DNA of 32,686 nucleotides from Bacteroidia bacterium (lineage in GTDB: Bacteria > Bacteroidota > Bacteroidia > NS11-12g > UBA955). Positions 1,305 through 31,398 of the stretch are shown one piece after another. Below the pieces are notes generated by a model. That model worked only from the letters and a program-made list of their open reading frames with translations, searched no databases and was not told the origin of the DNA. The position numbers and the translations under genes were made by a program. How positions within the stretch are numbered: the stretch's first letter is position 1; each line of letters begins with the position of its first letter. The stretch is from positions 2,659-35,344 of the forward strand of contig JALQWO010000003.1 of the NCBI GenBank assembly GCA_023258655.1, given 5' to 3'.

Positions 1305-1830
1305 TCCCCGTTTTGGCTGAATCCTTTGCCGCTTTTTGCAAAATATAATTCATCTGAGCCTCTGGAGTCGTCAACCCCAAATTGAGCATATCAATCATCA
1401 CGACGGCCTGCTTACCCACCTCTTCATTCCCAAACTCCTTGGCCAAACGCTGATAGTATTTCAAGGCTTTGTCCAAAGCACCGCCCTGCTCGTAGTAATG
1501 AGATGCCACCACCAACATTTCCATCAGGGGCTTGCCCGTGGGTTTAAACTGTTCGATATAGTATTCGCTATACTCCGCCGCTTTGAAAACCATACCTTGC
1601 CGTTCTGCAATCTTGGTGCACACATACACAAAATCACTGCTGTGCTTGTATTCTGGATGGGCCTTGGCAAAATTCATCAAGGGCGCCGCAGCCGAATCAG
1701 GCAATTGATCCCACTGAACTTTGGGAACAATCATCGCCTCGTAAGGAGCCACCTTGGCCAAATCTTGATCAAATTTCGAGGTGCAACCCGAAATCATCAA
1801 AAGCACACCCAACAATCCGTACCATTTCAT
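1294..1830 (-). CDS. Hypothetical lipoprotein (helical, TPR-like C-terminal half)
   Basis: The internal ATG at 1830 gives MKWYGLLGVLLMISGCTSKF, a signal peptide with a lipobox Cys. The longer tracked ORF (to 2292) runs antisense into parE and is rejected. The stop overlaps the moaA start by 11 nt. Confidence 0.7.
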   Translation of the reverse strand: MKWYGLLGVLLMISGCTSKFDQDLAKVAPYEAMIVPKVQWDQLPDSAAAPLMNFAKAHPEYKHSSDFVYVCTKIAERQGMVFKAAEYSEYYIEQFKPTGKPLMEMLVVASHYYEQGGALDKALKYYQRLAKEFGNEEVGKQAVVMIDMLNLGLTTPEAQMNYILQKAAKDSAKTGNAH

Positions 1831-1902
1831 GTTGCGAAAATAAGTGAAGGATGTGAAAAACTCGGGCATAGTGGTTAATATCCAAGCATTAATATTGTAT
1901 TT

Positions 1903-3816: not shown

Positions 3817-5295
3817 ATGGACAGCCCATCAAACCCAGTGATCACGGTAAAATCTCGGTGGCTGGGTCGCTATGGCGAAGGCCTAATTTGGCCCCTTTGG
3901 CTGTTTGTAGTTTTTCATTTGGGCGAGGTGCGCTGGTTGCATACCGACAGTGCGTACACCCTTTTCCGCATTCTCAATCACCAGTCGCTGTTCTATGATC
4001 GATTTGCTTGCGAGCTGATTGTATGGCCAGGACAGCTCCTCACCGCCATGGGTGCACCGGCCTTCTGGGTGTTGCAGGGACTCAACCTCATCCTACCCAT
4101 CATGGCCTGGATGTTTTGGATACTGTTTGCCCAAAGTACACACCGATGGATGCTCTTTTTTCTCATTCTCGCCGGGGGAAATGAACTGTTTTTCATTGGC
4201 TACAGTGAAATCGGACTGAGCACATTGGCCTTTCTCACAAGCTGGCTACTCATTGAGCAACACAGTCCAACTGACAGCCTCCGATGGTCTTGGGCCACAC
4301 TATCATTCACGCTGCTGGTAACCCTGCTATCCCACCCCGCTGGATGGCTGTATGTGCTCATCATCGCGGGTTTTGCCCTGGTTTCGATCTCGAGGAAGCA
4401 AAGCCTTTACCTATTCCTTACAGTGCTCCTTGTGATGGGATTAAAAATGGCCCTCTTCCCCAGCAATTCTTATGATGCCGGCCTCTACCAAACTTTGATA
4501 AATTCCCAAACTTGGCAGCATTTCGACCAATTGTGGAGCCTACAATACCTATCACATGCCTCGTGGTTTTTCATTCCCAGCGTCACTGCTGTCGCTTGTT
4601 TTTTATTGGGACTCACCAAACCGTGGCGCGGCTTATCCTTGGCCTTTTTTGCCCTGTGGATCATTGAGGTTGTTGTCTGTTTGATCATTTACTCCCAAGG
4701 CGATGCCCACATCAACATGGAAAAGTTCTTCTACCCGGTGGCTGTTGTGGCGATGCTATCCATTCCGATGTATTTGTGGTCGAGCCAGCGTCCAGAATTT
4801 GGCCATTATCGACTAAAATTCGTCACGGCCAAACAGCGTGATTTTTCGCGAAATATTGTGGGTATACTGCCCTGGTTCATGGCGTTGAGCCAGCTGCTGG
4901 GCATTCAACAACATAGCCCAACCTACACCAACCGCTATCAGCAACTCCATGCGTTGATCACAGCGATGCCCAACGACAAAATGATTGCCCATTACGATAG
5001 TCTATCGTCTCGCGTTCATCCCGGATCGTTGTGGGGATTGAGTTACGAAACAGCTTTGACATCGGTATTGAATCAGGAAAGAACTGGGCACAATGGGCCC
5101 GTTAAATCCATGAAGGCCATGTCCACGGAAGAAATCGCAGACTGGGATGAAACACAAAAACGGATTGGGGACTCTTTGCTGATCGGCGCTCCATTCGAGA
5201 TGCCGCAGCGCATCGACCGGTTGAATCGACGCTATTTTCAATTTGTGCAGGGCACCACCTATCGATTGTGGAACCCTGCTACAAACCGCAATTGA
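3817..5295 (+). CDS. Polytopic integral membrane protein of unknown function with a soluble C-terminal region of roughly 100-130 aa
   Basis: 492-aa ORF, 18 nt downstream of parE. It has about 9-11 hydrophobic segments and a hydrophilic tail from about residue 365. I recognise no catalytic motif. Confidence 0.7.
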   Translation: MDSPSNPVITVKSRWLGRYGEGLIWPLWLFVVFHLGEVRWLHTDSAYTLFRILNHQSLFYDRFACELIVWPGQLLTAMGAPAFWVLQGLNLILPIMAWMFWILFAQSTHRWMLFFLILAGGNELFFIGYSEIGLSTLAFLTSWLLIEQHSPTDSLRWSWATLSFTLLVTLLSHPAGWLYVLIIAGFALVSISRKQSLYLFLTVLLVMGLKMALFPSNSYDAGLYQTLINSQTWQHFDQLWSLQYLSHASWFFIPSVTAVACFLLGLTKPWRGLSLAFFALWIIEVVVCLIIYSQGDAHINMEKFFYPVAVVAMLSIPMYLWSSQRPEFGHYRLKFVTAKQRDFSRNIVGILPWFMALSQLLGIQQHSPTYTNRYQQLHALITAMPNDKMIAHYDSLSSRVHPGSLWGLSYETALTSVLNQERTGHNGPVKSMKAMSTEEIADWDETQKRIGDSLLIGAPFEMPQRIDRLNRRYFQFVQGTTYRLWNPATNRN

Positions 5296-11893: not shown

Positions 11894-14800
11894 TTATTTG
11901 ATGATGGTCACAGTGCCCTTGTAGGCATGCATCACGCCATCAATGTATCGGAAAGTAATGGCGTAGGCATAGACACCTTCCATCACAGGATCACCTTTGG
12001 TATCCAACCCTTTCCATCCTACATTGGGATCCTCAGTATAGAACAACACTTCACCCCAACGGTTCATTACTGTCATTCGATACTTCGACATACCGAAAGA
12101 CTGGAATGGCTTAAAGTCCTCATTCAATCCATCCACATTGGGCGTAAACGCGTTCGGCAAATGGAACAACAATTCTGGCTTCAAGAAAATATTCTTCCAC
12201 AATGTATCAGAACAACCACTGGCATTGCTCGCAATCAACATTGTTTTGAAATCTCCAGTACCAGAGAAAGTCATGAAGAACGGCACACCAGACGTTGAAG
12301 TCTGTCCATCCTGAAACAACCAATTATAGGTATCGGTATTTTTTCCAGTAAATGTGAATTTCCAATCCGTTTCCAGACCCCTAGACAGCAAATATTCCCC
12401 TGTGAAATCAGCCACAGGCTTGGGCAACACATTGATGGGCAGCGCTGTAGAAGTCGTAGAACAACCCTTGTCGGAAACCACAGTCAATGTCACATTGTAA
12501 CTACCATCCGTACTGTAAGCCTGGAGTGGATTGGCGATATTTGACGTAAAGCCATTTCCAAAGTTCCAACTGTAGGATGCAATACTTCCGCGATTCACCT
12601 TGGCATTAGATCCAAATTGAATGGGCACTTCTGCACAGGCGTTCATACCCGTGATGCTCACTGTAGGATGCTCATTGACGCGCAACACCATGGTTTTTTC
12701 AGTACCGCATCCTTTGTCGGACACCACCCGCAATTTCACCGGATAATCACCCGTATCGGGCAAGGTTTGGGCAGAAACCGTTTTCACATTCGCGAAAGGC
12801 ACCCCTTTTACCAACCATGTGTAGGCAACGCCCGTGGCGGAATTCTCAGCAGTAATGTTGCTCACCACAAACGAATTCCCTTGCAAACATTGCTCGGCAT
12901 TGTTGACAGCAAAATTCGCAACAGGCACAGGCCAAACATTCACAGATTTGGTAATAGAATCCTTACATCCCGTACCTGAAGTCAATACCAGTTTGACATC
13001 GAACTTCCCGGCGGACAAATATGCTTTGTTGGCAACATTCTTCAGTGTTGATTTGGTTCCATCACCCAATGTCCAATCGCTTGTATAGGTAGAACCAAAT
13101 ACCGTATTGTCTGTAAACGTAAATTGATGGCCTCCCAAACACGCTGTATCCTTGCTCGTTGTAAATGAAGCCTTGGGTGAAGGCACAACATCCACAACTC
13201 CTGACGTTGAATCAAAACAACCATCATTCGTGGTAATGCTATGGAAAACACGATACTTGCCCATCGCCGCAAACGACCTCACCAAAGAATCCCCTGACCC
13301 TGTACCTCCGTCCGAAGTCTTCCAAACGTGGGTAGGATTGGCCCCCGTCCATGGGTATTGTTGTTTGAATGTAAACTTGTTACCTGCCAAACACTGTTGC
13401 TTACCGATCCCCGCTATATCTGCTTTTGGCATATCAAACACCTCAACTTCACGTTGGAATGAGTCTTTACAGCCCAATGTAGTTGTTGCAATGATCCGTA
13501 TCCAATATTTACCCGGAGAACTAAAGGTCTTGTTGGGAACAATCTTCGCATAATTGTAGGTCCCATTTTGGTATTTCCAATCCGATTTCGAATTCAACAC
13601 CGCATTGGCAGGCACCGTGCTCGCATCAGACAAATTGAAGAAGTGACCCTGAAAACATTGAGAGGAGTCTGTTACTTGGAAATATGCCTTGGGCTCAGGA
13701 GCGACGTACACCCGCATGGTATCTTGATCTACACAACCGTAATCAGATGTGTTTTTGATGATTACTTTGTGCCATCCTGTATCGGTAAATTTAACCGCTT
13801 TGATGGAAGAAGTCGTGGCCGTCTGATTGTTCTTGTATGTCCACAGCGTAGAATATGTACCCGCCGTGATGCTTGACTGATCCGTAAAATCAAATTCATT
13901 CGTCTTGAAACAGAGACTTATCTGATTGATGTTTACTTTGTTTATTGGCGCCGGTCGCACCACAAAGGTAGAGTCCACGGTATCTCGACATCCAAAAGGT
14001 GTCACCGTAATCAATTTCACCTTGAATGTCCCCTCAGTGGTAAATTTATACTTGGTGGTGTAAGGCAAAGATGTATCCTTGGTACCGTTGCCAAAATCCC
14101 AAATCGAAGAGCCCACACCTTCTTTACTTTGTGAACTATCAGTGAAAGTCACTTCTGCATTTTGGCAGAAATACGTTGAAGAAGCCGCCAATTTTGCCAG
14201 AGGATAAGGATATACAATCAACAAAGTATCTAGTGTATCTCGACAACCTTTTCGCGATTCCACGATGTACCGCAGTTTGTTGGTACTAAGAGAGTCGAAT
14301 GTATACCTAAACACCAAGCTATCCTTGTTCACAAACATTTTCTTGTAATCATCAAACAATCTCCAGCGCGAAATTTTGAGCGCATCATTGTTAAAGGTTG
14401 TGCCATCCCGCATCACAAAGCGATTGGTCTTGTAACACATATCCAAACTATCAAATTGGATTTTGGCATTCAACGCATCCGCCCTGCGCACCCAGGTAGA
14501 ATCAATGGTTACACAATTCGTGGAAGTATCCAAAACGCGCAACCAAACCCGGCCTTCTTTCTGCATGGTGAAGGTTTGCAATTTGCTAGAATCTTGCCAT
14601 TTGTACAAAAACTTATTGGAGGTTGGACCTGTAAACAATTGTTTCACAGCAGAAGCACACTGGGTGGTAGTATCTGGGAAATCAAAAACAGGGCCTTGTT
14701 TGATGGTAATAATTTTGCTTCGGGTAACTGTATCTACTTGACCGCAGTCCGCTGTGATAGGAATCTTCACAACCACATAATAAGTTCCAACTTTCTTGAA

Positions 14801-16402
14801 TTTGTGGAAAACGATTTGTCCCGTATCACTTGTACCATCGCCAAAATTCCAACGATATCCTTTGATTTTTGGCTTGCCCGCCACAACCGCTTCGATTTTT
14901 ACGTCTTCACCCGGACATTGGGTCTTACGGGTTACTTTGATATCATAGTCCACGTTCTCGAAGACCGCACCGGCGGAATAAGAATAACTTTCATAGGGAC
15001 CAACACCGTAAGCAACACAAACAAATCCACTATCACTTTGAATGGTATTTGCGCTGGGGTTATTCACTTTCACCTGGGCATAGGCATACTTAGTACCCAC
15101 GTTGGTAAAAGTAGAAGCAAGCATGGAAATACCATTGACTTTTACCGAACTCTTGGCAGTTTGTCTCACCAAAATATTCACCCAATGTTGGTTCATATTG
15201 CTTGTTGTTGCTGTACCCACAAGGGTTTTAATCAATTGTTGATTCACATCAGGTGAGATGAAAATCGCGGGATCCCCGTTGGATCCAGACAACCCTGAAC
15301 AAACCCCATTCTTCATGTATTGAACCACATAGGCCGGTTTATCTGTTGAAATGGAGGTAGCCACCGCTGTGGTGATGTGTCCATATATCCACTCTCCCTT
15401 TTTAAGAATGGTATTGGAAAGTGTCCCATTAACATAAACCTTCGTCGTATCCTTGGCCGCAATCACCTTGTATGCATACCCGCCCGTTTGTCCCGCAAAT
15501 GGCATCAACACATAATCTTTTCCCAACGCAGCTGTGGGCAATACCTGCGTGTACAAATGGTCTCGTCCATTGATACCACCACCGCAGTTTCCTTTGGTTA
15601 CGTGGCTAGAACGAGCCCCCGAGAATACATTGATCTTCCCGCAACCCTCAACTACCCTCACACGTGTTCCTGTCAAATCACCCGCCTTCGCGCCTGTTGT
15701 TGACCAAGAAGTTGCCGCAGGATCTGTATTGTTTGTTCCATCAGTGCTTTGTGACTGAACCTCATAAACCTGCCCCCTGGCGAGGGTTACCGTAAATGGT
15801 GTACCCGCTGTTTTGCCCCCTTTTGTGGTTGCTGTAGGCGTTATTTCTACCTTCACGTTGGCATCCATACCTACAACAACAAATTCACTTTCAGCCCAAC
15901 GATTTGAGGTTGGAAAACCAGAAGTTCCCGCATTGTTAGGGAAACTCGCTACAAAAAATTCCGGTGCCGAAGGTATACTCTCGTAAGGCAACACAAACGT
16001 GGCATCAGAACGGTTGATTTCCAAATTCAAACAATAAACGTTCACTGGATCCTTGGCAACGATACGCAGACCTTTTTTGCTGTTGACATCTGTGGCTGGA
16101 AATTCAGAACCCACGGGATAATAATACGTCCTATCAACCTCAATTCGGTTCACCTTGCCTGCCGTGATGTTGACTGTTTGGTTAGATCCCGCTACACGAG
16201 GATTGTCGAGCACCAACGTTGTATTGACATCAGACGTCACAAACAACAACAATGTATCGGGCAATCCTCCACTTCGCGTTTCCATTTCCATGAAGCTCAT
16301 GTAAAATGTCTTCCCAGTAGATGTAATTTGAGCGTGCAATTTGTTGCCACTTGCAAAAAATAAAACCAATAAAACAAGGGCAATTCTTTTAAGTATTTTC
16401 AT
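11894..16402 (-). CDS. Large secreted cell-surface adhesin-like protein: N-terminal domain of about 500 aa, about 9 or more PKD-like repeats, and a type B T9SS C-terminal sorting domain (gliding-motility-associated CTD)
   Basis: The start at 16402 gives the signal peptide MKILKRIALVLLVLFFASGNKLHAQ. Repeats have WxFGDG/WDFGNGT...GxYxVxL...GCxD signatures. The last 91 aa (11897-12169) read LPNAFTPNVDGLNEDF...MNRWGEVLFYTED...WKGLD...GVYAYAITF...GTVTIIK, matching the TIGR04131-type CTD. Confidence 0.9.
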   Translation of the reverse strand: MKILKRIALVLLVLFFASGNKLHAQITSTGKTFYMSFMEMETRSGGLPDTLLLFVTSDVNTTLVLDNPRVAGSNQTVNITAGKVNRIEVDRTYYYPVGSEFPATDVNSKKGLRIVAKDPVNVYCLNLEINRSDATFVLPYESIPSAPEFFVASFPNNAGTSGFPTSNRWAESEFVVVGMDANVKVEITPTATTKGGKTAGTPFTVTLARGQVYEVQSQSTDGTNNTDPAATSWSTTGAKAGDLTGTRVRVVEGCGKINVFSGARSSHVTKGNCGGGINGRDHLYTQVLPTAALGKDYVLMPFAGQTGGYAYKVIAAKDTTKVYVNGTLSNTILKKGEWIYGHITTAVATSISTDKPAYVVQYMKNGVCSGLSGSNGDPAIFISPDVNQQLIKTLVGTATTSNMNQHWVNILVRQTAKSSVKVNGISMLASTFTNVGTKYAYAQVKVNNPSANTIQSDSGFVCVAYGVGPYESYSYSAGAVFENVDYDIKVTRKTQCPGEDVKIEAVVAGKPKIKGYRWNFGDGTSDTGQIVFHKFKKVGTYYVVVKIPITADCGQVDTVTRSKIITIKQGPVFDFPDTTTQCASAVKQLFTGPTSNKFLYKWQDSSKLQTFTMQKEGRVWLRVLDTSTNCVTIDSTWVRRADALNAKIQFDSLDMCYKTNRFVMRDGTTFNNDALKISRWRLFDDYKKMFVNKDSLVFRYTFDSLSTNKLRYIVESRKGCRDTLDTLLIVYPYPLAKLAASSTYFCQNAEVTFTDSSQSKEGVGSSIWDFGNGTKDTSLPYTTKYKFTTEGTFKVKLITVTPFGCRDTVDSTFVVRPAPINKVNINQISLCFKTNEFDFTDQSSITAGTYSTLWTYKNNQTATTSSIKAVKFTDTGWHKVIIKNTSDYGCVDQDTMRVYVAPEPKAYFQVTDSSQCFQGHFFNLSDASTVPANAVLNSKSDWKYQNGTYNYAKIVPNKTFSSPGKYWIRIIATTTLGCKDSFQREVEVFDMPKADIAGIGKQQCLAGNKFTFKQQYPWTGANPTHVWKTSDGGTGSGDSLVRSFAAMGKYRVFHSITTNDGCFDSTSGVVDVVPSPKASFTTSKDTACLGGHQFTFTDNTVFGSTYTSDWTLGDGTKSTLKNVANKAYLSAGKFDVKLVLTSGTGCKDSITKSVNVWPVPVANFAVNNAEQCLQGNSFVVSNITAENSATGVAYTWLVKGVPFANVKTVSAQTLPDTGDYPVKLRVVSDKGCGTEKTMVLRVNEHPTVSITGMNACAEVPIQFGSNAKVNRGSIASYSWNFGNGFTSNIANPLQAYSTDGSYNVTLTVVSDKGCSTTSTALPINVLPKPVADFTGEYLLSRGLETDWKFTFTGKNTDTYNWLFQDGQTSTSGVPFFMTFSGTGDFKTMLIASNASGCSDTLWKNIFLKPELLFHLPNAFTPNVDGLNEDFKPFQSFGMSKYRMTVMNRWGEVLFYTEDPNVGWKGLDTKGDPVMEGVYAYAITFRYIDGVMHAYKGTVTIIK

Positions 16403-16519
16403 TTCAATGTGATTCTTCCGGTTATGTACAAAGTACATAACGCACAAAACGTCATTTTCGTTGCTTGGCCTTGCAATTTTGTGACATTATTTAGACGGGC
16501 ATGGACAAAACCCATATCC

Positions 16520-17733: not shown

Positions 17734-19779
17734 TTAATACTTACCCAAATAACGACGGATCGACCATTCCGCACCCAACAGCACGACAATGGCCAACATC
17801 CACCCCCACAAATCCCACCAATGCACATTGTGTGATTGAGATTTCATCACCGGCTTCGCCAAAACGGTTCTCGCCAAAACGGTAGACAACGAATCACCAT
17901 TCCTGAGGGGTAAAAAAGCACCCGATGATTGATCCGCCAGCTGTTTCAACAATTTGTGATTGGCTTGTGTACTCAATATTTCCGCAGGCTGATCCACTAT
18001 GGCAAAGGGCAATTCCGTTTTGAATTTACCTCCCATCGATTGTGCTTGCAAAATATATCTTCCCGCATTTAACCCCGCCAAACTCGCCATCCAACCCTGT
18101 TCTCCTCGCGCAAGATTCACACTCCGCGACCTTCCTTTTTCATCCACCAATTTCAACTGTCGCTCCGCGTCATCATCCATCATACCACTTTTGTCTCTAC
18201 AAACCACCCGCGCATATACCCGATCACGCAAGTCCCATGTGTTGGTAGACAATACAATTTCCAGGGGTTTTTTCGCCGCTGCCGCAGAGGAAATCAATCC
18301 TATCGTTCTTCGCACCCAAGCATCAAAGGCCAAAGCATCGCCATACTGAGACTTTTCTTGCATCCGCCAACGCCAAATTCCTTCTCCATAAAATTGCGCC
18401 ATGGCCGCCGATTCCTTGCGCCAATACACCAACAAAGGCAATTGCGTATTCACACCACTCCAACGCTGATACAACAGGGCTTCACCACCTGCAGGCACCC
18501 ACTGTTTCGACACAGGTGCATAGACAGGGGGAAAACCCAGCCATCGAGCCGATTCCTTTTCATCCAACCCCCAAATGGCTTCATTGTTGTTCCAATGGGG
18601 CTGAACCTCCTGCCAGTTTCTGAGCGATACCGTCTCACCTGACTGTCCCAAAGCCTTTCCCAATCCTGAAACATTCTGTCCATCAGTAGAAAAAATCCAA
18701 ATGGCCTTCCCCGCCACAATCCAATCTGACAGTTTTTTCAGTTCTTGTTGCGATTGAAATTTCCAACCATGAAGCACAAATACATCGGCATCTTCCATGC
18801 TTTGCGACCGGGACAATGATTCCACCAAGAATTGACCGCCCATCTCCAAGGCTATTTTCATGGCGGCAATGTCGGGGTGTGGAGCCCCGTAAATCAGGGC
18901 AACCTTTTTTCGTTCGTCTATTACTTTGATGTATTTGGCGCGCTGATTATTGATGCTATTTTGATCACCTTTGGCCCCAATCACTGAAATCGAAATGGGC
19001 ATCATCCCCTTGGATGTTGGTCGTATTTCAAAAGCCATGCGTTTCCAATCTTGTTCGCTGCTGGGCGACCATAACTGTTCCCTTACTTCTTTACCTGCAA
19101 CCAATTGAATCCTCAATGGCTGTCCTTTTAATCGTTGGCTTTTCACAGAAACTTCCACAGAAAATGTGTTCCCCAGAAATGCTTCATCATTGCATTGCAC
19201 AGATTCAATGGACGCATCGATTTGTGGCTGTGGATCTCCTGCGCCAACCAAAATCAATGGTATTCCCGAGGCCACAGGTTCAAATTGGGGATTTCTGCCT
19301 TCGTTGTTAATACCATCCGACAGCCAAACCACCCCCGCAACCGCCGTATTGGCCGCAATCCCGTTTGCGTGCTGAAGCACGGCAGACATATTCGTATGGT
19401 ACACATCCAACCCTTGCAACGGCCCACCCATCAACACCTTATCGGCAAATTGATATTCCTGCACTTTCACACCTTTGGTCCTTCTCACCCCCTCCAGCAC
19501 TTCTGACCACCGTTGCTTCTCAGACTCAGAAACCGATTTGCTCACATCGCTATAAACCAACAACACCGGATCTTGTACCCACTGCCGAACACGAATCCAC
19601 CAAGGATTGAAAAACAACAAAATCAACAAGAACATCGCAACGAAACGACAAGCAGCAGCCCAAATCCAAGGGGACTTCCATCCGCCCTGAGCACGAATAT
19701 TCCTGAAGTAATGAAACACTGCCAACAAGGCAGACACTAAGAATGCGATTACCCAACCTAAAACTGGAACGCCGAGCAT
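17734..19779 (-). CDS. vWA-domain membrane protein (N-terminal double TM, MIDAS motif, C-terminal TM anchor; BatA/BatB-like architecture)
   Basis: 681 aa with two N-terminal TM helices. The beta-strand plus DxSxS is PVLLVYSDVSKSV (D78). VVWLSDGINNEG supplies the S/T-DG motif. The C-terminal anchor is WWDLWGWMLAIVVLLGAEWSIRRYLGKY. Confidence 0.75.
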   Translation of the reverse strand: MLGVPVLGWVIAFLVSALLAVFHYFRNIRAQGGWKSPWIWAAACRFVAMFLLILLFFNPWWIRVRQWVQDPVLLVYSDVSKSVSESEKQRWSEVLEGVRRTKGVKVQEYQFADKVLMGGPLQGLDVYHTNMSAVLQHANGIAANTAVAGVVWLSDGINNEGRNPQFEPVASGIPLILVGAGDPQPQIDASIESVQCNDEAFLGNTFSVEVSVKSQRLKGQPLRIQLVAGKEVREQLWSPSSEQDWKRMAFEIRPTSKGMMPISISVIGAKGDQNSINNQRAKYIKVIDERKKVALIYGAPHPDIAAMKIALEMGGQFLVESLSRSQSMEDADVFVLHGWKFQSQQELKKLSDWIVAGKAIWIFSTDGQNVSGLGKALGQSGETVSLRNWQEVQPHWNNNEAIWGLDEKESARWLGFPPVYAPVSKQWVPAGGEALLYQRWSGVNTQLPLLVYWRKESAAMAQFYGEGIWRWRMQEKSQYGDALAFDAWVRRTIGLISSAAAAKKPLEIVLSTNTWDLRDRVYARVVCRDKSGMMDDDAERQLKLVDEKGRSRSVNLARGEQGWMASLAGLNAGRYILQAQSMGGKFKTELPFAIVDQPAEILSTQANHKLLKQLADQSSGAFLPLRNGDSLSTVLARTVLAKPVMKSQSHNVHWWDLWGWMLAIVVLLGAEWSIRRYLGKY

Positions 19780-19801: not shown

Positions 19802-20482
19802 TTATTGACGCACGAAGCCTACGCGGCTTATACCCTTTGGCGTTTCAAGCAACAAAGAGTAAACCCCGGCCGACAAATCGGAGACATCCAAACGGCCTTC
19901 GGTAATTGTAACGGCCTTTACAACAGCGCCTTTGGCATCCAACAATTGGGCTTGACTTGACTCAACACCCAATACCTGCAACACATCCTTCACAGGGTTG
20001 GGATAAACCGTAGCCATCTCCACCATCCATGATTGGGTATTCGCACCCCAACGGATATAAATATTCCAAGTAATGGTATCCCGATCTGTGGGATTATCAA
20101 AATCCCAAATGGCGTATTTCACCACCGCCGTATCCGCCTTCCCGTTGGGGAAAACCGTAATTTTCAATGATGCCTCCGCATTGGGAGCCACCTTTGACAT
20201 GGTATCATTGTTCAAAAATGTGGCATAACAGTTACGATTGTCGCAAAAAGAAACATCCCAAGCCGAGGGATAATCAATGCTCACCTTTTCATAAGCAAAA
20301 ATGATGGCCGTTTTCTTCAAATTTTTGAAATGAATTGGACAATCAACAGGCTGGGTGGCATCTGGATAAAACGTGTGCTCTGCCTTTCCGTTTTCCAACT
20401 CAAAACCTTGGGCTTTTGCTACTCCAATGCCGGCAAACAACATCGCCAACACAACCAAACTGCGATTTATCGTACGTTTCAT
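19802..20482 (-). CDS. Small secreted protein with a type A T9SS C-terminal sorting domain (Por_Secre_tail); N-terminal domain of unknown function
   Basis: The start at 20482 gives the signal peptide MKRTINRSLVVLAMLFAGIGVAKAQ. The C-terminus is VYPNPVKDVLQVLG...LLDAKGAVV...LDVSDLSAGVYSLLLETPKG. A perfect TATTTTTG box lies between this ATG and the tracked upstream ATG at 20500. Confidence 0.85.
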   Translation of the reverse strand: MKRTINRSLVVLAMLFAGIGVAKAQGFELENGKAEHTFYPDATQPVDCPIHFKNLKKTAIIFAYEKVSIDYPSAWDVSFCDNRNCYATFLNNDTMSKVAPNAEASLKITVFPNGKADTAVVKYAIWDFDNPTDRDTITWNIYIRWGANTQSWMVEMATVYPNPVKDVLQVLGVESSQAQLLDAKGAVVKAVTITEGRLDVSDLSAGVYSLLLETPKGISRVGFVRQ

Positions 20483-20487
20483 GATAG

Positions 20488-20495
20488 CAAAAATA
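20488..20495 (-). promoter_or_regulatory. -7 promoter box TATTTTTG upstream of the type A T9SS cargo gene
   Basis: Perfect TAnnTTTG on the minus strand, followed by the spacer CTATC (5 nt) and then the ATG at 20482. Confidence 0.5.
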
Positions 20496-20517
20496 CACAA
20501 AAGTCAGCACAAGGCGA

Positions 20518-21864: not shown

Positions 21865-21872
21865 TACCTTTG
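21865..21872 (+). promoter_or_regulatory. -7 promoter box TACCTTTG in front of the nonulosonic-acid operon
   Basis: Perfect TAnnTTTG, followed by the spacer AAAATC (6 nt) and the ATG at 21879. The tracked TTG start at 21870 lies inside the box. Confidence 0.5.
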
Positions 21873-21878
21873 AAAATC

Positions 21879-22619
21879 ATGTACGCGTTTATCCAAGCCC
21901 GTATGGGCTCTTCGCGATTGCCAGGCAAAATGTCTATGACCTTGCCCGATGGCAAAACCCTGCTCGAAGCGGTGATTGGTAGACTCGCGCCCCATGATGT
22001 AACACCCGTACTATTAACCACAAAGCAGCCGGCCGACGACGCCCTGGCATCCATGGCCGCACGCTACAACCTACCCGTATTCAGGGGTGATGAAGAGGAT
22101 GTTCTCAGTCGATTTGCCGAAGCCAGCGAAGTGTTCAACGTTCCAGAAAACGACTTCGTGTTGCGCATCTGTGCCGACAACCCCTACCTGAGTCATTACA
22201 TCATTGATCAAACCCTACGCACTTGCCAGCAATTGCCAGAAAATGACTACATCACTTTGGGCCACGGAGGCAAGCCAGGCATCAAACACCATACGGGTAT
22301 TTTTGTTGAAGCAGTCAAGCCAAAAGCGCTGAAAACACTCATGCCACTGCAAAACGACTGGTACAATGAGCATGTTACCATCGGGCTCTATGAAAACCCC
22401 AACAAATACAAGATTCTGATTCAAGAAATTCCAGCGGAATGGCACCCCGATTTTGAGAAAATTCGGTTAACCATTGATGACATAGATGATTGGAATTTTT
22501 GCCTAAAGACCTACCCTTCATTGGCTCCTCTCGACTTCCCTCAACAGCGAAAACTGCTGCTAAGTGAAAAAAGTTGGGTAACTTTGATGGAAAATCAAAT
22601 CAACAAATACCAGAAATAA
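21879..22619 (+). CDS. SpsF-type cytidylyltransferase (CTP_transf_3 family); candidate CMP-nonulosonate synthetase
   Basis: Contains MYAFIQARMGSSRLPGKM, RGDEEDVLSRF, ICADNPY and IRLTIDDIDDWNF, the pattern of SpsF-like acylneuraminate cytidylyltransferase-family proteins. It lies immediately upstream of the NeuB homolog, as in the B. subtilis spsE/spsF pairing. Confidence 0.8.
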   Translation: MYAFIQARMGSSRLPGKMSMTLPDGKTLLEAVIGRLAPHDVTPVLLTTKQPADDALASMAARYNLPVFRGDEEDVLSRFAEASEVFNVPENDFVLRICADNPYLSHYIIDQTLRTCQQLPENDYITLGHGGKPGIKHHTGIFVEAVKPKALKTLMPLQNDWYNEHVTIGLYENPNKYKILIQEIPAEWHPDFEKIRLTIDDIDDWNFCLKTYPSLAPLDFPQQRKLLLSEKSWVTLMENQINKYQK

Positions 22620-22622
22620 CGC

Positions 22623-23672
22623 ATGTCGCAACACCAGCATACTTATATCATCGGAGAAATCGGACAGAACCACAACGGATCCGTAGACATTGCCAAACTC
22701 ATCATCGATGCTGCGGCAAGACCCGTTCGCGACGACCTGTTCGATATGGACTTGCCTCGCATGGACGCCGTAAAACTCACCAAACGCGATTTGGCACAAG
22801 AATTATCGGCATCCCAAATGTCGCGCGAGTACAACTCTCCCCATTCCTTTGGCAAAACATATGGTGAACATCGCGCCAAATTGGAATTGAACGATGAACA
22901 ACATTTTGAATTATACCAATATGCAAAGTCCCATGGACTGGATTTTGTAGAGACGCTGTGTGCCATCGGATGCCTGAGCATGACCAAATATTTCATGCCA
23001 GACCGTCTCAAAGTAGCCAGTCGCGACCTAACCAATTTACCCTTACTCAGTGCATTGGCAGAAACCAAAATACCCATCATTTTATCAACAGGAATGGGCG
23101 GGTACAAGGAAATCGACGATGCGTTGGCAACGATCACGCGCTACCACAACCACATCTCCATTTTGCACTGCGTTTCCGAATACCCAACGCGACCCGAAAA
23201 CGCCAATCTCTTGTCGATCAAGGCATTGCAAAAGAAGTACCCTGAATACAGCGTAGGCTATTCTGACCATACTGTAGGCATCAGCGCGCCCGTTTCCGCC
23301 GTGGCCATGGGGGCAAAAATCATTGAAAAACACATCACTCTCGATCGTCGCATGAAGGGCACCGACCAAGCGGGATCCCTGGGTGTAGAGGGAATTCAAC
23401 GCATGGTGCGTGACATTCGATTGATTGAACGATCCATGGGTGTTGAAGATGTATTTATTGCCGATTCCACAGTGTCAGCCAAACACAAATTGGAGCGCTC
23501 CATTGCAACAAATCGAGAAATCAAAGCTGGCGAAATTATCCAAGCATCAGATTTACATTTATTGTCGCCCGGAGACGGTTTCAAGTGGCATGAAATAGAC
23601 AAAGTGGTTGGCAAAAAGGCATTGGCTCCTATTCCCGCCGATGAAATCATCTACCCACAACACATTTCTTAA
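22623..23672 (+). CDS. NeuB-family nonulosonate synthase with a C-terminal SAF domain; resembles the 9-phosphate-forming (NANS / KDN-9-P synthase) branch
   Basis: Contains IIGEIGQNHNGSVDIAK, YNSPHSFGKTYGEHRAKLELNDEQ, ILSTGM, GYSDHT, IEKHITLDRRMKGTDQAGSL and a SAF-like tail. Several of these resemble human NANS as I recall it (EIGQNHQG, SWGKTYGEHK, KGSDHSASL). Confidence 0.88.
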   Translation: MSQHQHTYIIGEIGQNHNGSVDIAKLIIDAAARPVRDDLFDMDLPRMDAVKLTKRDLAQELSASQMSREYNSPHSFGKTYGEHRAKLELNDEQHFELYQYAKSHGLDFVETLCAIGCLSMTKYFMPDRLKVASRDLTNLPLLSALAETKIPIILSTGMGGYKEIDDALATITRYHNHISILHCVSEYPTRPENANLLSIKALQKKYPEYSVGYSDHTVGISAPVSAVAMGAKIIEKHITLDRRMKGTDQAGSLGVEGIQRMVRDIRLIERSMGVEDVFIADSTVSAKHKLERSIATNREIKAGEIIQASDLHLLSPGDGFKWHEIDKVVGKKALAPIPADEIIYPQHIS

Positions 23673-23687
23673 TTCACTTTACAATAG

Positions 23688-24208
<521 letters not shown>

Positions 24209-24209
<1 letters not shown>

Positions 24210-25144
24210 TGCTGCAAAATTTGTTTCAATCGGCCCTCACAATAGGAAAAATCCTGGTCAAAAGCCAATTTGGCCTTCCCCAATTCCGTGCTCCTGAAAA
24301 ATCGGTGGTGGTTATCGCGAACGGGCCTTCTGCTCGATCTTTCATCGATCGGTGTGAGGAAGAGGGAATCGAATCGTTGAAACAAAAAGGATTGGCGTTT
24401 TTTGCCGTCAACAAATTCAGCTGTCAGCCCGAGTTTTTTCAGTTAAAACCCAAGTATTACCTCATGTTGGATATGTACTTCTTCGAATTCTCCAAAGAAG
24501 TATTCGAAAAGCCGTCCTTGCATCCCATCGCCCAATACAAACCCGATTTTGAAAAAACACAGCGGATGATCAATGAGACTTGGGAAGCCCTACAAAAAGT
24601 GGATTGGCCCATGGTTTTTTTCGTACCCCAACTGTATCGGAAAAGTTACATCGTTAACAACCTAAACAACCCAAATATCCAATTCGTCACATACAATTAT
24701 ACAGTAATCAAAGGTGCTGAAACATTCCGTAACCGCATGTATGATTGGCGTCTGGGTAGTCCACAGTGTGAAAACGTGGTGAATTCATGCATCTTCAACG
24801 CGATGCAAGCTGGATTTGAAAACATCTACATCACGGGGGTAGACCACGACTTCCACATCAACATCATGGTAGACTCAGACAACACCATCATCCGAACAGA
24901 GTCGCACTTTTATGCCGATGAAAACAAGAAACACCCCTTGTTGAAACAAGAACCCGATGGCACCACCGGCAAAATTCGATTGCATGAACTATTTCTTAGT
25001 TTGGTGAAGGTGCATACCGGTTATGATGAAACGGCCCGCTACGCCAAACACAGTCAGAAACGAGTTGTAAACCTCACCGAAGGGGGATACGTGGATGCCT
25101 TTGAACGAATGTCGCTGGGCGATTTCTTTCGTCAGTTTTCCTGA
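24209..25144 (+). CDS. Uncharacterised protein; candidate CMP-nonulosonate transferase (GT42 CstII-like or Maf/DUF115-like motifs)
   Basis: 311 aa. The start overlaps the previous stop (TAATG). VVVIANGPSARSF, FAVNKF and LKPKYYLMLD resemble the GNGPS...KPDY..D pattern of CstII and MptE-like/Maf proteins. GFENIYITGVDHDF resembles GYKEIYLSGIDFY of CstII. I am confident it is a real CDS. The function is inferred, at about 0.4. Confidence 0.8.
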
Positions 25145-25160
25145 AATCCTCCAACTATCA

Positions 25161-26669
25161 TCAATCTTTTAGCTTGAACCCCAAGGGCAACAGCATTTTC
25201 TTGACCATGCTGTAAACATCTTCGCTCAGTCTAAATCGCAGTATGACAAACAATGTTGACCCCATCAAAACCAGGGTTTTTAGGCTAGCGGCGAGAAGGA
25301 CGTGGGTTCCGCTTGACAGTACCCAACAGTGATTCAGCAGAAACACAAGACCAAAGAGTAACACGCTTAGAAGCACCCCACGGGTGATGGGCTGCATTCC
25401 ATAAACACCGTAAATGAGGATGGCCATGACGATGCCTGATGCCAGCCATACCCCCCCAGTGGCCAACGCCGCACCGTTGATACCGTAAATGGGAATCAGG
25501 TATTGATTGAGCAAAACCCCCACCACAATGGAAATACCATTGATCAACAACGACAAATAATACCGCTTAGAGAAAATCAACATCGCCGAAGAATTGCCTT
25601 GCAACAACACGCACAACTTGCCAATCCCCAGGTAAAAAACGGCCCACTTCCCTGTTTCATACAACTTCCCATTGGGCATGTAGTGGTAAAACACATCGAT
25701 ATTAATCCAAATCAAAAGGAGTGCAAGTGCCCCCAAGATAAACTGATTGAGACTGGTCTTTTGGTACAACCTTTCTATTTCTGCTCGATCGCCCACATGA
25801 ATGGCTTCCGACAATTTTGGATTGGCAATCTGAAGTATGCTACGGGTAGGTATTTCTATCAAGACAGCCATATTCACTGCGATGGCATAGATGCCTGTAT
25901 CCGCGGACCCTTTCATGGAACTTACCATCAAAAAGTCCATGCGTTGCAACACCAACATGGCCACATAGGTCAGAAACAAGTATCCGGTATATCGATAAAA
26001 CTCACTTTTGAGTCCTTCCTGCTCGCGAACAAACTGCATATCGGGCTTGAAACTGAGCGATGTTTTCCGCAAGAGATAAGACACATTGAGCAACATAACC
26101 ACCCCATAAACGGCCGAGATGGAATACATGGTTTGGTCAAAATCTACTACACCAATATAGTAACACCAGCCCAAGAGTCCCAGCAGGATGCGTACCACAT
26201 TCTCCCGCAAAAAGGAAGAATACACGATGTTGCCAAGTGCCGCCAAAAAAATCTCAAAAACCGTGTTGAAAACGAAGAAAAAGACAAATGGAATCAGCCA
26301 ATAATAATAAGGCAGAAAATCTGCACTGTTCTCAATGAGGTATGTCACCACCCATGGCTGTCCCCACAAAAGGAGCATGGTAACGAGCAAAAATCCCAAA
26401 ATGGGAATGACCAACAACCAGAATCCCGCTCCGTGATGCCCCCCATCATTCTTGAATCGAGGAAAGAACTTCCAAATTGAATATCCCGTACCCAATTGCG
26501 CCACACCAGCCAGCAAAGCCCCCATTTCTATAAACAGCCTAAAGACCCCATTTTCACTGGCAGTAAACACCAACGGAAAGAGATAAAATGTGGTAAATAA
26601 TCCCACAACACTTCCACTATAGTTAACAATGGAAGCCCAAAAACTATTCTTGGCAATTACCCCGGACAT
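25161..26669 (-). CDS. Wzx-like oligosaccharide flippase (MOP/polysaccharide biosynthesis protein family)
   Basis: About 502 aa with roughly 12-14 TM segments and a length and topology typical of Wzx. The start is ambiguous: GTG 26675, ATG 26672 or ATG 26669. I chose 26669 because the TACCTTTG box occupies 26675-26682. Confidence 0.8.
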   Translation of the reverse strand: MSGVIAKNSFWASIVNYSGSVVGLFTTFYLFPLVFTASENGVFRLFIEMGALLAGVAQLGTGYSIWKFFPRFKNDGGHHGAGFWLLVIPILGFLLVTMLLLWGQPWVVTYLIENSADFLPYYYWLIPFVFFFVFNTVFEIFLAALGNIVYSSFLRENVVRILLGLLGWCYYIGVVDFDQTMYSISAVYGVVMLLNVSYLLRKTSLSFKPDMQFVREQEGLKSEFYRYTGYLFLTYVAMLVLQRMDFLMVSSMKGSADTGIYAIAVNMAVLIEIPTRSILQIANPKLSEAIHVGDRAEIERLYQKTSLNQFILGALALLLIWINIDVFYHYMPNGKLYETGKWAVFYLGIGKLCVLLQGNSSAMLIFSKRYYLSLLINGISIVVGVLLNQYLIPIYGINGAALATGGVWLASGIVMAILIYGVYGMQPITRGVLLSVLLFGLVFLLNHCWVLSSGTHVLLAASLKTLVLMGSTLFVILRFRLSEDVYSMVKKMLLPLGFKLKD

Positions 26670-26674
26670 CATCA

Positions 26675-26682
26675 CAAAGGTA
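26675..26682 (-). promoter_or_regulatory. -7 promoter box TACCTTTG upstream of the flippase gene
   Basis: Perfect TAnnTTTG on the minus strand. The ATG at 26669 follows after 5 nt. Confidence 0.45.
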
Positions 26683-26796: not shown

Positions 26797-27735
26797 ATGA
26801 AAAAATTACTTCTATTGGCCGTTGTTGCTGCAAGTTTTGCAGGAATAATGCAGAGCTGTAAGCCCGACAATCCAGATGGTGGAAACGGCGGCGCTTCTTT
26901 GTCAGTGACCAACAAGCAGCGTTCATTCGTTGTGTATCACACTGCTACTTGGTGTGGTCCTTGTGGTCTGTACGCCATGCCTGAGTTCAAAAAATTGGTA
27001 ACCAACGCCAACCCTGACAACATCGTGGCTGTGGATTACCATTCTTCAAACTCTTCTAAGTTGGTTCCTTTGTGGATGAAGCCCAACAACGACACTTTGT
27101 TCATCGCACCTTTCGCATTCGAGTTGTTGACCACCGTGTCTAACATCAACACTTCTGGACAGTACTCTATCCCAACCTTTTGGTTGAATAACTCTTTGTT
27201 GGGAACTAGCACTGTGAAGTCTACCGACATCGAGAATGCTTCTGTTAGCGCAAACCAAATTGCCACTGAAGTGGGTGTTGCTGCGAGCGCTACTGCTAGC
27301 GGACAAACTTTGAACATCAAATACAAGTTGAAGGCATTTGCTCCTGAAGCGGGTGACTACTATGTATCAGTGTTCGTTGTAGAAAAGAAAGTTAACTGCT
27401 TACAGACTGTATCAGGTGCTGGTGATGTTGCCACAGACCACGAGCACGTAATCCGTGCTTCTGCTCAAGCCGATGCTTCTGGTAAGCCTGTAGCTTTCTC
27501 GACCTCTGCTATCATGAGCAGCCCTGCTGCCAACGCAGAAGTTGAAAAGTCACTTTCTTGGACTTACAGCGCAATTCCTCAAGCCGTAAAAGACAAATAT
27601 GCTACTTTCGGTTTGCCTTGGTGGAGCTGGAACCCTGCCAACACAGGTGTGGTTGTAGCTGTTTGGAGAAAAGTTACCGACAACCCTACAAAGCCTTGGT
27701 TCTTGATCAATGCTACTTGGGCTGACGTGAAATAA
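26797..27735 (+). CDS. Lipoprotein with a thioredoxin-type WCGPC motif (possibly Omp28-related thioredoxin-fold family)
   Basis: MKKLLLLAVVAASFAGIMQSCKP is a signal peptide with a lipobox. YHTATWCGPCGLYAMPEF contains a canonical Trx active site. Codon use is strongly biased (TCT, GCT, GGT, TTG, CCT, AAC, TTC), and a strong terminator follows. Confidence 0.85.
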   Translation: MKKLLLLAVVAASFAGIMQSCKPDNPDGGNGGASLSVTNKQRSFVVYHTATWCGPCGLYAMPEFKKLVTNANPDNIVAVDYHSSNSSKLVPLWMKPNNDTLFIAPFAFELLTTVSNINTSGQYSIPTFWLNNSLLGTSTVKSTDIENASVSANQIATEVGVAASATASGQTLNIKYKLKAFAPEAGDYYVSVFVVEKKVNCLQTVSGAGDVATDHEHVIRASAQADASGKPVAFSTSAIMSSPAANAEVEKSLSWTYSAIPQAVKDKYATFGLPWWSWNPANTGVVVAVWRKVTDNPTKPWFLINATWADVK

Positions 27736-30546: not shown

Positions 30547-31398
30547 ATGGAACCATCGAAAATCTCCGAAGAGCAAGAATGGCAATTGTTTGAATTGTTG
30601 GAAGGCAACCTATCTGAATTTGCCGCAGCGGAATTACACCGAACACTGCAGCATGATGCAACACTCAAGGCACATTACAACGCTTTGGCCCAAACCTATT
30701 TGAAACCCAGCATCACCCATTACCCCGATGCCCCTTCCTTGAAAAAGCAGCATGTAAACCGCAAGGTTCTATTCTATGTATCTTTTTCAGCCGCAGCCGC
30801 ATTGGCCATACTCTGGATTTTCCGTCCAACCGTTTCTACACACATCCAGACCCCTCATAACATCGCTACGCATGCTGCCAACCCGTCCTCCGATAAATCC
30901 ACGCCCAGAACCTCCGAATCTCAACCTTGGACCGTAGATCACGATCGCCAAGAAAACAAAAAAGGTCGCGCAATATTGGCACAGCTTTCAGAATCGACCC
31001 AAAATGGAAATTTGGCAGGCCTAAAACCGGAGGAGCACAACGAAAACGGGGTACATCCCTTGATTTTGGCCACAGAACCCATTCGTAAAGTTAAGAATGT
31101 CAACGACAGCAGCTTCCGAAGAGGCACTGAAATATTGGCCACACAAAACAACGCCAACACCAGCAACAAACCGATTACTCACGAGGAGATCCAAACAGCC
31201 ATCGCCCAGCGCACACCCAAAACCAAAAAAGAATTGTTGAAATCCTTCTATCAGGACGCAAGAAGAATGGTCGAAAACGGTCATCTCCCCCATATCAACG
31301 TGAAAACAGTGAACAAAGACCAAGATTGGATACCTGAATTCCAAGTGGGACTCACCCTGGAAAACAACGTCATTTTAACCTCATTTAATCCCGAATAA
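30547..31398 (+). CDS. Putative single-pass anti-sigma factor (no zinc-finger motif) with a low-complexity periplasmic region
   Basis: It starts 5 nt after the sigma gene. It has an N-terminal helical region of about 55 aa, one TM segment (VLFYVSFSAAAALAILWIF) and a polar tail rich in N, T, P, K and E. The assignment rests on position and topology only. Confidence 0.55.
   Translation: MEPSKISEEQEWQLFELLEGNLSEFAAAELHRTLQHDATLKAHYNALAQTYLKPSITHYPDAPSLKKQHVNRKVLFYVSFSAAAALAILWIFRPTVSTHIQTPHNIATHAANPSSDKSTPRTSESQPWTVDHDRQENKKGRAILAQLSESTQNGNLAGLKPEEHNENGVHPLILATEPIRKVKNVNDSSFRRGTEILATQNNANTSNKPITHEEIQTAIAQRTPKTKKELLKSFYQDARRMVENGHLPHINVKTVNKDQDWIPEFQVGLTLENNVILTSFNPE

Follow-up and report, generated by a model that had tools for sequence, protein, structure and literature searches.

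Gene content of the locus

We analyzed a 32,686-nt stretch of DNA (the whole stretch is here referred to as the window) from contig JALQWO010000003.1 of a Bacteroidia bacterium, and focused on the gene at positions 24209–25144. Its 311-aa product, here called the target, is a candidate glycosyltransferase for the nonulosonic acid KDN (a sugar resembling sialic acid), with KDN activated by cytidine monophosphate (CMP) as the donor. The gene closes an operon of four genes, and a gene for a membrane protein converges on it from the opposite strand. The five genes are the following.

21870..22619, plus strand: cytidylyltransferase, candidate CMP-KDN synthetase, first gene of the operon (PF02348 CTP_transf_3, E 3e-17)
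22623..23672, plus strand: nonulosonate-9-phosphate synthase with NeuB and SAF domains, candidate KDN-9-phosphate (KDN-9-P) synthase (PF03102, E 3e-64; PF08666)
23694..24209, plus strand: KDN-9-phosphate phosphatase of the HAD-IIIA type (NCBIfam equivalog NF058599, 260.8 bits, cut-off 180)
24209..25144, plus strand: target gene, 311-aa single-domain protein, candidate CMP-KDN:acceptor KDN-transferase (ATG open reading frame, translation, homologues, profiles and structure model)
25161..26675, minus strand: polytopic membrane protein of 504 aa, candidate Wzx-like flippase of the MOP superfamily, convergent with the target (relatives with PF01943)

The last A of the TAA stop codon of the phosphatase gene is the first base of the target ATG (...GGATAATGCTG...), and this one-base overlap fits translational coupling. 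Since the downstream gene lies on the minus strand 16 nt away, the target is the last gene of the operon. Both points had been made by an earlier reading of the window from its letters alone (the sequence-only reading), and both held. The synthase scored under the NeuB and PseI equivalog cut-offs of NCBIfam and is 65–68% identical to the synthases of Bacteroidales KDN cassettes. A Pfam scan of approximately 29 open reading frames (ORFs) of the window revealed no other recognisable glycosyltransferase family, which agrees with the earlier statement that the target, if it is a transferase, is the sole glycosyltransferase of the locus. Scans for promoters and terminators flanking the operon gave nothing better than shuffled sequence. 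As for the cytidylyltransferase ORF, its listed start is a TTG codon (21870–21881, LKIMYAF...), and the ATG three codons on (about 21879) is the likelier start.

Homologues and sequence relationships

A word-indexed search returned 50 homologues of the target, with E values from 4e-207 to 5e-21. An exhaustive profile search gave 5,842 representative clusters (50% identity) at E<=1e-3, with 1,099 at E<=1e-30, and two sequence patterns, one of them the DAFER signature described below, placed relatives in 555 species genomes. Such numbers show that the target is a real gene and not a chance ORF. All of the 80 relative genomes that we fetched are Bacteroidota, and the nearest ones are metagenome-assembled genomes (MAGs) of freshwater Bacteroidota/Flavobacteriales, whose protein is 82–85% identical to the target.

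The sequence-only reading had pointed to two Pfam families, PF01973 (MptE-like/Maf_flag10/DUF115) and PF06002 (CST-I), and each of these pointers held in part. PF01973 was matched by all 37 aligned relatives (E<=1), with a best E value of 8.7e-11, and many relatives carry a precomputed PF01973 annotation, while the target itself stayed under the gathering score. Because the relatives match in spite of this sub-threshold score, the target is, as judged from sequence, a divergent branch of the PF01973 superfamily. Literature searches on DUF115, MptE-like proteins and PF01973 in Bacteroidota found nothing on the target family.

PF06002, the family of the sialyltransferases CstII and CstI (glycosyltransferase family GT42), was out of reach for direct scans: the Pfam scan found no match in the target at E<=1, and hmmscan found weak matches in 3 of the 37 relatives (best E 0.049). 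Comparison of profiles was clearer. When a profile of the 37 sequences was searched against the PDB sequences, CstII and CstI came out on top (E 0.014–0.04), with an alignment across nearly all of CstII. With hhalign, the same 37-sequence alignment covered 18 columns of one CstII sequence (Prob 64) and 78 columns of a 31-sequence GT42 alignment (Prob 86). A clear result needed a deeper family alignment of 193 sequences (Neff 4.9) against 111 GT42 sequences, which gave Prob 97.0 and E 7.8e-11 in local mode and Prob 98.2 and E 2.2e-13 in global mode, joining target residues 30–304 to CstII 1–227 over about 210 columns at about 14% identity. In the controls, consisting of one reversed and five column-shuffled GT42 alignments, Prob did not exceed 0.6% and E was 0.09–0.98. 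The likeness of the motifs to those of CstII that had been noticed by eye is therefore beyond chance. Moreover, some bona fide GT42 proteins are annotated with both PF01973 and PF06002, which means that the two Pfam families overlap. By the family hidden Markov model (PF06002) the target stands outside GT42, yet it appears to be remotely homologous to it.

Predicted structure and conserved residues

The AlphaFold2 model of the target, built with an alignment, has a pLDDT of 89.2 and a pTM of 0.88, and consists of approximately seven main beta-strands alternating with helices, with one weak segment. We compared it with known and predicted structures using Foldseek. Among viral predicted structures, the top 17 matches had E values of 2e-7 to 4e-4 with probability 1.00 and were mostly annotated as "MptE-like"; the viral MptE-like proteins aligned at E 2e-7 to 1e-5 with TM scores of 0.42–0.52. 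Among PDB entries, archaeal MptE (8sd5) ranked first with probability 0.99, and the other matches listed were rejected as TIM-barrel and alpha/beta-hydrolase noise (TM<0.3). The predicted fold class is thus MptE-like/PF01973, and no unrelated fold competes with it. We limit the structural confirmation to this class and do not claim the CstII fold from the model; the link to CstII is drawn because of the profile comparison and of the published likeness between the PF01973 domain of Maf and CstII.

MptE is the archaeal 6-hydroxymethyl-7,8-dihydropterin pyrophosphokinase (HPPK; PDB 8SD5), an ATP-dependent kinase of pterin synthesis after which Pfam names PF01973. It is the sole credible solved structure among the Foldseek matches listed, so the target might not be a glycosyltransferase but an MptE-like nucleotide-dependent kinase or pyrophosphokinase, or some other enzyme whose substrate is an intermediate of the pathway or something unrelated. 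We regard this as highly improbable. The KDN pathway is complete without an extra kinase, and window scans found no pterin or folate genes nearby, the context of the target being CMP-sugar and flippase genes. In addition, the family profile is significantly similar to the GT42 transferases, and the fusions to a CMP-sugar synthetase and to PseH, together with the linkage to two nonulosonate pathways (see below), fit a step after CMP activation.

All peptides quoted in the sequence-only reading are present in the target translation in the stated order, namely VVVIANGPSARSF (residues 33–45), FAVNKF (65–70), LKPKYYLMLD (79–88), GFENIYITGVDHDF (202–215) and ESHFYADENKKH (231–242). Conservation was counted over the 193 family sequences. 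The best-conserved residues are N38-G-P-S41, V67-N68, P81, W133, N163, N189, G210-x-D/E212-H213, N225, H233-F-Y235, Y272, N288 and D296-A-F298-x-R/K300. The following segments, with their CstII counterparts in the hhalign pairing, are the most informative.

24320..24331, plus strand: N38-G39-P40-S41, predicted CMP-binding loop, equivalent to CstII N9-G10-P11-S12 (97–99% conserved; hmmsearch and hhalign)
24407..24412, plus strand: V67-N68, equivalent to CstII C30-N31 of the CNQ motif (N68 in 191/193)
24836..24847, plus strand: G210-V-D212-H213, equivalent to CstII G152-I-D154 with the ribose-binding Asp (G 193/193, D/E 193/193, H 182/193); best-aligned segment in every CstII/GT42 comparison
24839..24988, plus strand: low-confidence, probably mobile lid (residues ~211–260) with N225 and H233-F234-Y235 (pLDDT 50–72 here only)
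25094..25108, plus strand: D296-A-F298-E-R300 (DAFER), C-terminal signature with no GT42 counterpart (D 192/193, F 185/193, R/K 193/193)

Within the lid, N225 and H233 are 98% conserved, F234 96% and Y235 95%. The lid aligns with CstII ~155–188, the stretch that contains the catalytic His188 and that we take to be the mobile lid of CstII. H233 is our preferred candidate for the general base.

The conservation of the nucleotide-binding and candidate catalytic motifs (94–100% over 193 diverse sequences) argues for an active enzyme. It speaks against the idea that the target has an accessory role or no activity, accompanying nonulosonate cassettes perhaps as scaffold, regulator or CMP-KDN hydrolase, while the true transferase is encoded elsewhere, for example as a TagB-like GT-B enzyme. 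Precedents for such an enzyme do exist in the phylum: the transferases of Tannerella forsythia for pseudaminic acid (Pse) and legionaminic acid (Leg) are GT-B/TagB-like (PMC5420450), and the Bacteroides thetaiotaomicron genes BT1713–15 lie beside BT1716, a member of the CDP-glycerol glycerophosphotransferase family (PMC10434189). Pfam scans found no TagB-like gene in the window, and we give this idea the lowest probability of all those considered here.

Gene linkage to nonulosonate pathways

We then looked at the gene neighbourhoods of the family. The four genes of the window and the convergent membrane protein of about 500 aa recur in 11 Flavobacteriales loci (L005, L008–L012, L014–L017). In Bacteroidales the order is target, cytidylyltransferase, NeuB and phosphatase (L040, L046, L062, L075, L077, and also L068, a truncated contig). 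To rank the neighbours we clustered every ORF within 6 kb in 86 loci without bias. NeuB was the commonest neighbour (22 of 86 loci, the expectation for a single-copy gene within +-10 kb being ~0.5%), followed by a protein similar to short-chain dehydrogenases/reductases (SDR-like; 18), the cytidylyltransferase (18), the Wzx-like membrane protein (17), the KDN-9-P phosphatase (16), GlsA (15), an unannotated 475-aa membrane protein (15) and GlsB (14).

A neighbour-joining tree separates three clades defined by their context. Clade I contains the window, Flavobacteriales and Cytophagales-like members; a NeuB-type or KDN-9-P phosphatase gene is present in 17 of its 19 loci, usually together with a Wzx-like gene, and the cassettes are for KDN of two kinds or for pseudaminic acid. 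Clade II comprises Bacteroidales with KDN cassettes. Clade III, the largest Bacteroidales clade, is described below.

Genomes related to that of the window share one chromosomal site, between adk/HAD and the genes for the Wzx-like membrane protein, an Omp28-like protein and enoyl-CoA hydratase. The transferase-like and flippase-like genes are constant at this site while the nonulosonate cassette varies (window 21870–26675 compared with relatives). In L019/L020 (7894–12682) the site holds a second KDN type, in which the gene order differs and a cytidylyltransferase and a KDN-9-P phosphatase equivalog accompany a NeuB that has no SAF domain (31% identical). In L007 (2129–10844) it holds a full pseudaminic-acid set, in which PseB, PseC, PseF and PseI each exceed the cut-off of their equivalog and the fifth gene matches PseG best, and here the target homologue is fused to a PseH-like GNAT domain. 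The site looks like a donor-swapping hotspot.

A second fusion was found in protein P0063, a single polypeptide that joins a target-family domain (residues 11–286) to a CTP_transf_3 cytidylyltransferase (293–504). Downstream of its gene (L088 2943–4562; L089 2815–4434) come NeuB+SAF and a KDN-9-P phosphatase equivalog, and unrelated genes flank this mobile-looking three-gene KDN module. As the fusion occurs on three contigs, an assembly artefact is unlikely. The linkage to two chemically different nonulosonate pathways, the fusion to a CMP-activating enzyme and the transferase-type fold together place the target at a step downstream of CMP activation. The co-occurrence with nonulosonate genes that the sequence-only reading had suggested looking for is thus strong, being seen in clade I loci, in the ranking of neighbours and in two natural domain fusions. 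We find this evidence from context stronger than that from homology and fold.

Assignment of the target and proposed mechanism

Homology, fold class, conserved motifs, gene linkage and domain fusions were all observed, and profiles, fold, linkage and fusions support the earlier proposal of a new transferase-family member. We conclude, with a probability of roughly 0.7, that the target is a CMP-KDN-dependent transferase, a cytoplasmic single-domain glycosyltransferase forming a new branch of the GT42/PF01973 superfamily.

Several observations weigh against this assignment. First, annotation gives it no help: every family member is named "hypothetical protein" at its source, and the NCBIfam scan of the target found no family, so the earlier statement that the protein fits no named family with confidence stands. 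Second, the similarities of the target taken alone are low. Its PF01973 match (E 1.7e-5, 25.1 bits) falls under the gathering cut-off of 34.6 and is confined to residues 135–216, and phmmer with the target alone found no match among the PDB sequences even at E<=10. Third, no Foldseek match in the PDB reached E<1e-3, and the first one, 8sd5, has TM scores of only 0.31/0.42 at about 9–10% identity. CstII, with which the sequence-only reading had proposed a comparison, is absent from the 50 PDB matches listed (as is Maf). Fourth, in the alignment CstII His188 falls on H259, a residue shared by 130 of 193 sequences, and the 98%-conserved H233 falls on CstII N177, which makes the assignment of the catalytic residue uncertain. 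Fifth, gene context is not uniform. At the shared site, L018 (6658–12466), whose protein is a close homologue, has no KDN genes nearby and instead a T9SS (type IX secretion system) CHU_C protein, the Wzx-like neighbour being kept. Clade III has mostly SDR-like and glsAB neighbours, with NeuB sporadic within 10 kb, and its function may differ from that of a transferase in the window's clade. Embedding in a glycan locus of the LFG type (see below) was seen fully only in L075, and in part in L048 and L085.

Catalysis and the residues that carry it out, KDN as the donor (taken from the operon), the acceptor and the flippase's part are inferred, and we propose the following mechanism. The three upstream enzymes would convert mannose-6-phosphate and phosphoenolpyruvate to KDN-9-P, then to KDN and finally to CMP-KDN. 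The target would take CMP-KDN and move KDN to a hydroxyl of the acceptor. Its fold would be the modified GT-A, Rossmann-like one common to CstII/CstI, to the Maf_flag10 domain of the flagellin nonulosonate transferases and to archaeal MptE. By analogy with CstII, the CMP moiety would be held by the N38-G-P-S41 loop, N68 and G210-x-D212, and the mobile lid (~residues 211–260) would close over the donor. A lid histidine, most likely H233, could serve as general base for an inverting transfer that needs no metal. The operon does not encode the acceptor, which might be, for example, the outer glycan of Bacteroidota protein O-glycosylation, or a lipopolysaccharide or capsular polysaccharide unit, at the cytoplasmic face of the inner membrane, and the adjacent, dedicated Wzx-like flippase would export the KDN-bearing lipid-linked glycan.

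Candidate flippase neighbour and possible acceptor

Pfam gave no direct match for the 504-aa neighbour. This protein is similar to a PF01943 protein of L006 (BLASTP E 7e-84, 35% identity over 437 aa), whose gene is co-directional with the target homologue there and immediately precedes it, 12 nt upstream, and its orthologue in L007 has a weak PF01943 match (E 1.8e-4). In 16 fetched loci, besides the window, a Wzx-like homologue and the target homologue are no more than 10 kb apart. We regard the 504-aa protein as a candidate Wzx-like MOP flippase, on the strength of these similarities.

In Bacteroides sp. C.10_2 (L075, 7455–18772) the order is metG, a DUF1016/YhcG nuclease gene, wzx and a GT2 gene, then the target-KDN cassette, then GT4 and GT2 genes. 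This layout is that of the published LFG locus, which builds the outer glycan in Bacteroidota protein O-glycosylation (PMC12871550). The position of the cassette inside an LFG-type locus predicts a KDN-capped O-glycan in that species. We also considered a general link of the target to the metG-wzx LFG locus and rejected it, as one full example makes no rule. A lipid-linked glycan on the cytoplasmic face that is then flipped is our best guess for the acceptor, and it is a tentative one.

The recurrent Wzx-like neighbour and the LFG insertion favour this lipid-linked route over a Maf-like one, in which a protein, for example a T9SS cargo or an adhesin of gliding motility, would receive KDN directly on Ser/Thr without any lipid-linked intermediate. 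The latter is suggested by the closest Pfam family, PF01973/Maf_flag10, since Maf enzymes put nonulosonic acids and even Kdo directly on Ser/Thr (bioRxiv 10.1101/2020.06.03.131540); moreover, T9SS-type surface proteins are encoded nearby in the window, and the minimal cassettes of L088/L089 have neither flippase nor other glycosyltransferase adjoining. On the other hand, the target corresponds to the central domain alone and has none of the N- and C-terminal domains of the ~600-aa Maf, and O-glycosylation in Bacteroidota is said to proceed en bloc in the periplasm (PMC12871550). We therefore hold direct transfer to protein to be unlikely.

Glycine-lipid neighbourhoods in Bacteroidales

Another reading makes the target a glycolipid synthase. 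The acceptor would be a hydroxyl of a membrane lipid, either a serine-glycine aminolipid or a ceramide, and the MOP protein would flip a ganglioside-like KDN-lipid. Several facts lend it some appeal: Bacteroidales family members often adjoin glsB/glsA, at the frequencies given above and at higher ones with looser criteria; L077 carries target, CMP synthetase, NeuB, phosphatase, GlsA and GlsB on a single strand; the gls and NeuB genes of L003 are tightly packed on one strand; the window cassette has one transferase and a flippase and no other glycosyltransferase; and KDN-sphingolipids are known in a haptophyte (PMC6200933). Against it, no gls genes lie near the target in the window's own clade, and the gls-adjacent proteins form a separate clade (III) only ~30% identical to the target, so that the adjacency may be inherited synteny. 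The substrates for which MOP/Wzx proteins are known are linked to polyprenyl-PP. We judge a lipid acceptor to be unlikely.

The clade III homologue adjoins glsB/glsA in L001, L003, L024, L025, L036, L038, L039, L041 and L044, and likewise in L051, L052, L055, L074, L077, L083, L084 and L087. The two are usually divergent, and co-directional in L077 and L083. A degenerate SDR-like gene and the gene of the unannotated 475-aa polytopic membrane protein usually come before the homologue. In a Barnesiella MAG (L003, 70–6956, minus strand) we found GlsA, GlsB, a 515-aa protein, a lipocalin-like 155-aa protein, a PseB-like dehydratase, an ATP-grasp protein and NeuB, all head to tail with gaps of -1 to 45 nt, so that aminolipid and nonulosonate genes seemingly form one operon. 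No useful Pfam match was obtained for the 475-aa and 515-aa membrane proteins or the SDR-like protein of these Bacteroidales operons. For one step towards the Ser-Gly lipodipeptides (lipid 654 class), the addition of serine to glycine lipids, no enzyme has yet been assigned (PMC12746155).

In its widest form, the lipid reading would see in the family minimal nonulosonate/ulosonate transferases, spread over the Bacteroidota and with the target as their founding and experimentally accessible member, that act on membrane lipids and not on conventional glycans, which seems to us a long shot. For the window's clade this would mean KDN on the hydroxyl of a Ser-Gly aminolipid or a ceramide, with the product flipped by the MOP neighbour; we give this part little credence. 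For the glsAB-adjacent clade it would mean that the protein decorates or helps to build Ser-Gly lipodipeptides, and this part seems similarly improbable.

Other genes in the window

The genes around the operon are those of a Bacteroidota chromosome, housekeeping ones and others of the T9SS type. At 11894–16447 (minus strand) a surface protein of 1,517 aa is encoded, which combines an IgGFc-binding-like domain with roughly six PKD repeats and carries a CHU_C signal for type IX secretion, and at 19802–20500 there is a second, small protein with Por_Secre_tail. These two would be potential glycoprotein substrates if KDN reaches T9SS cargo. At 26797–27735 (plus strand) lies the gene of a 312-aa protein with weak matches to a thioredoxin-like domain (N-terminal) and to Omp28 (central); this Omp28-like gene adjoins the Wzx-like gene in 10 loci. 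Sizeable ORFs with no Pfam match are found at 17734–19779 (minus), 3817–5295 (plus), 1294–2292 (minus) and 30547–31398 (plus). Among these, the one of 681 aa keeps the same position in 11 related loci.

Comparison with known systems

The nearest characterized enzymes can be divided into four types. The first are CstII and CstI of Campylobacter jejuni (GT42, PF06002; PDB 1RO7, 2P2V), which like the target are single-domain proteins of ~290–310 aa. Both share the motif order GNGPS, (C/V)N and G-x-D, the last after a (G)YK/FE-x-IY(L/I)-x-G strand and followed by a lid with a conserved His, and both are expected to draw on a CMP-nonulosonate donor and to act on a glycan anchored to lipid at the membrane's cytoplasmic face. 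They differ in that the GT42 invariants R129, T131, Y156, Y162 and H188 are not clearly matched by target residues in the alignment (a search at the alignment level for clear equivalents of CstII R129, Y156 and Y162 found none), whereas W133, N163, N189, N225, HFY233–235, N288 and DAF(E)R296–300 are invariants specific to the target. CstII has a C-terminal tail for membrane association and the target has none. The donor of CstII is N-acetylneuraminic acid (Neu5Ac), while that of the target would be KDN, or Pse in other clades; GT42 occurs in Campylobacterota and Pasteurellaceae, and the target in Bacteroidota.

The second type is the Maf flagellin transferases (PF01973; M. magneticum Maf, PDB 5MU5), the closest Pfam family to the target. 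The central domain of Maf is reported to be structurally related to CstII, and the catalytic acidic residues of the M. magneticum enzyme are E324 and D415 (bioRxiv 10.1101/2020.06.03.131540). Maf genes are linked to cassettes for Pse, Leg or Neu5Ac, and their donors are CMP-nonulosonates or CMP-Kdo. Maf proteins have multiple domains (~600 aa), are specific for flagellin and occur in flagellated hosts, in contrast to the 311-aa core domain of the target, which occurs in non-flagellated Bacteroidota with a flippase as neighbour; no flagellar genes were found in the window or related loci. The third type, the kinase MptE discussed above, is the best solved-structure match to the target model.

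The fourth type comes from the target's own phylum and presumably serves the same purpose, the addition of a Pse, Leg or KDN cap to a surface glycan. It consists of Tanf_01245 and TFUB4_00887 of T. forsythia, which are GT-B/TagB-like, and of BT1716, and these are encoded beside CMP-nonulosonate genes (PMC5420450; PMC10434189); in B. thetaiotaomicron, for instance, the KDN genes that have been characterised adjoin the TagB-like gene BT1716 and no member of the target family (BT1713–BT1716, PMC10434189). The GT-B/TagB-like transferases have an unrelated fold, D/E-D/E-G and HP motifs and ~445 aa (PMC5420450), and no GT-B/TagB domain was matched in the target by Pfam or NCBIfam. We therefore rejected homology of the target to the T. 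forsythia Pse/Leg transferases as well as orthology to the gene beside BT1713–15. Bacteroidota would then have two non-homologous, analogous candidate solutions for the transfer of KDN and other nonulosonates.

Significance

Bacterial nonulosonic acid transferases are poorly known (PMC5420450), and our literature searches brought up no KDN transferase from bacteria. For B. thetaiotaomicron, KDN synthesis was demonstrated in 2008, and according to a 2025 review the structure of its capsular polysaccharide is still uncharacterized (PMC12413058). The locus described here is a compact module of three donor-synthesis genes, one transferase candidate and one flippase candidate, and the target belongs to a large family that includes abundant gut Bacteroidales and freshwater Flavobacteriales. 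The natural donor swaps at one site (KDN, a second NeuB type and Pse) form a ready series for the study of donor specificity. A transferase of this kind is not surprising in principle; its value is that the fate of KDN and the specificity of nonulosonate transferases become testable. If its activity is confirmed, the target would found a new glycosyltransferase family bridging GT42 and Maf and would provide a tool for the enzymatic synthesis of KDN-glycosides. It would also reveal the destination of KDN on Bacteroidota surfaces, which is relevant to the mimicry of host sialic acids.

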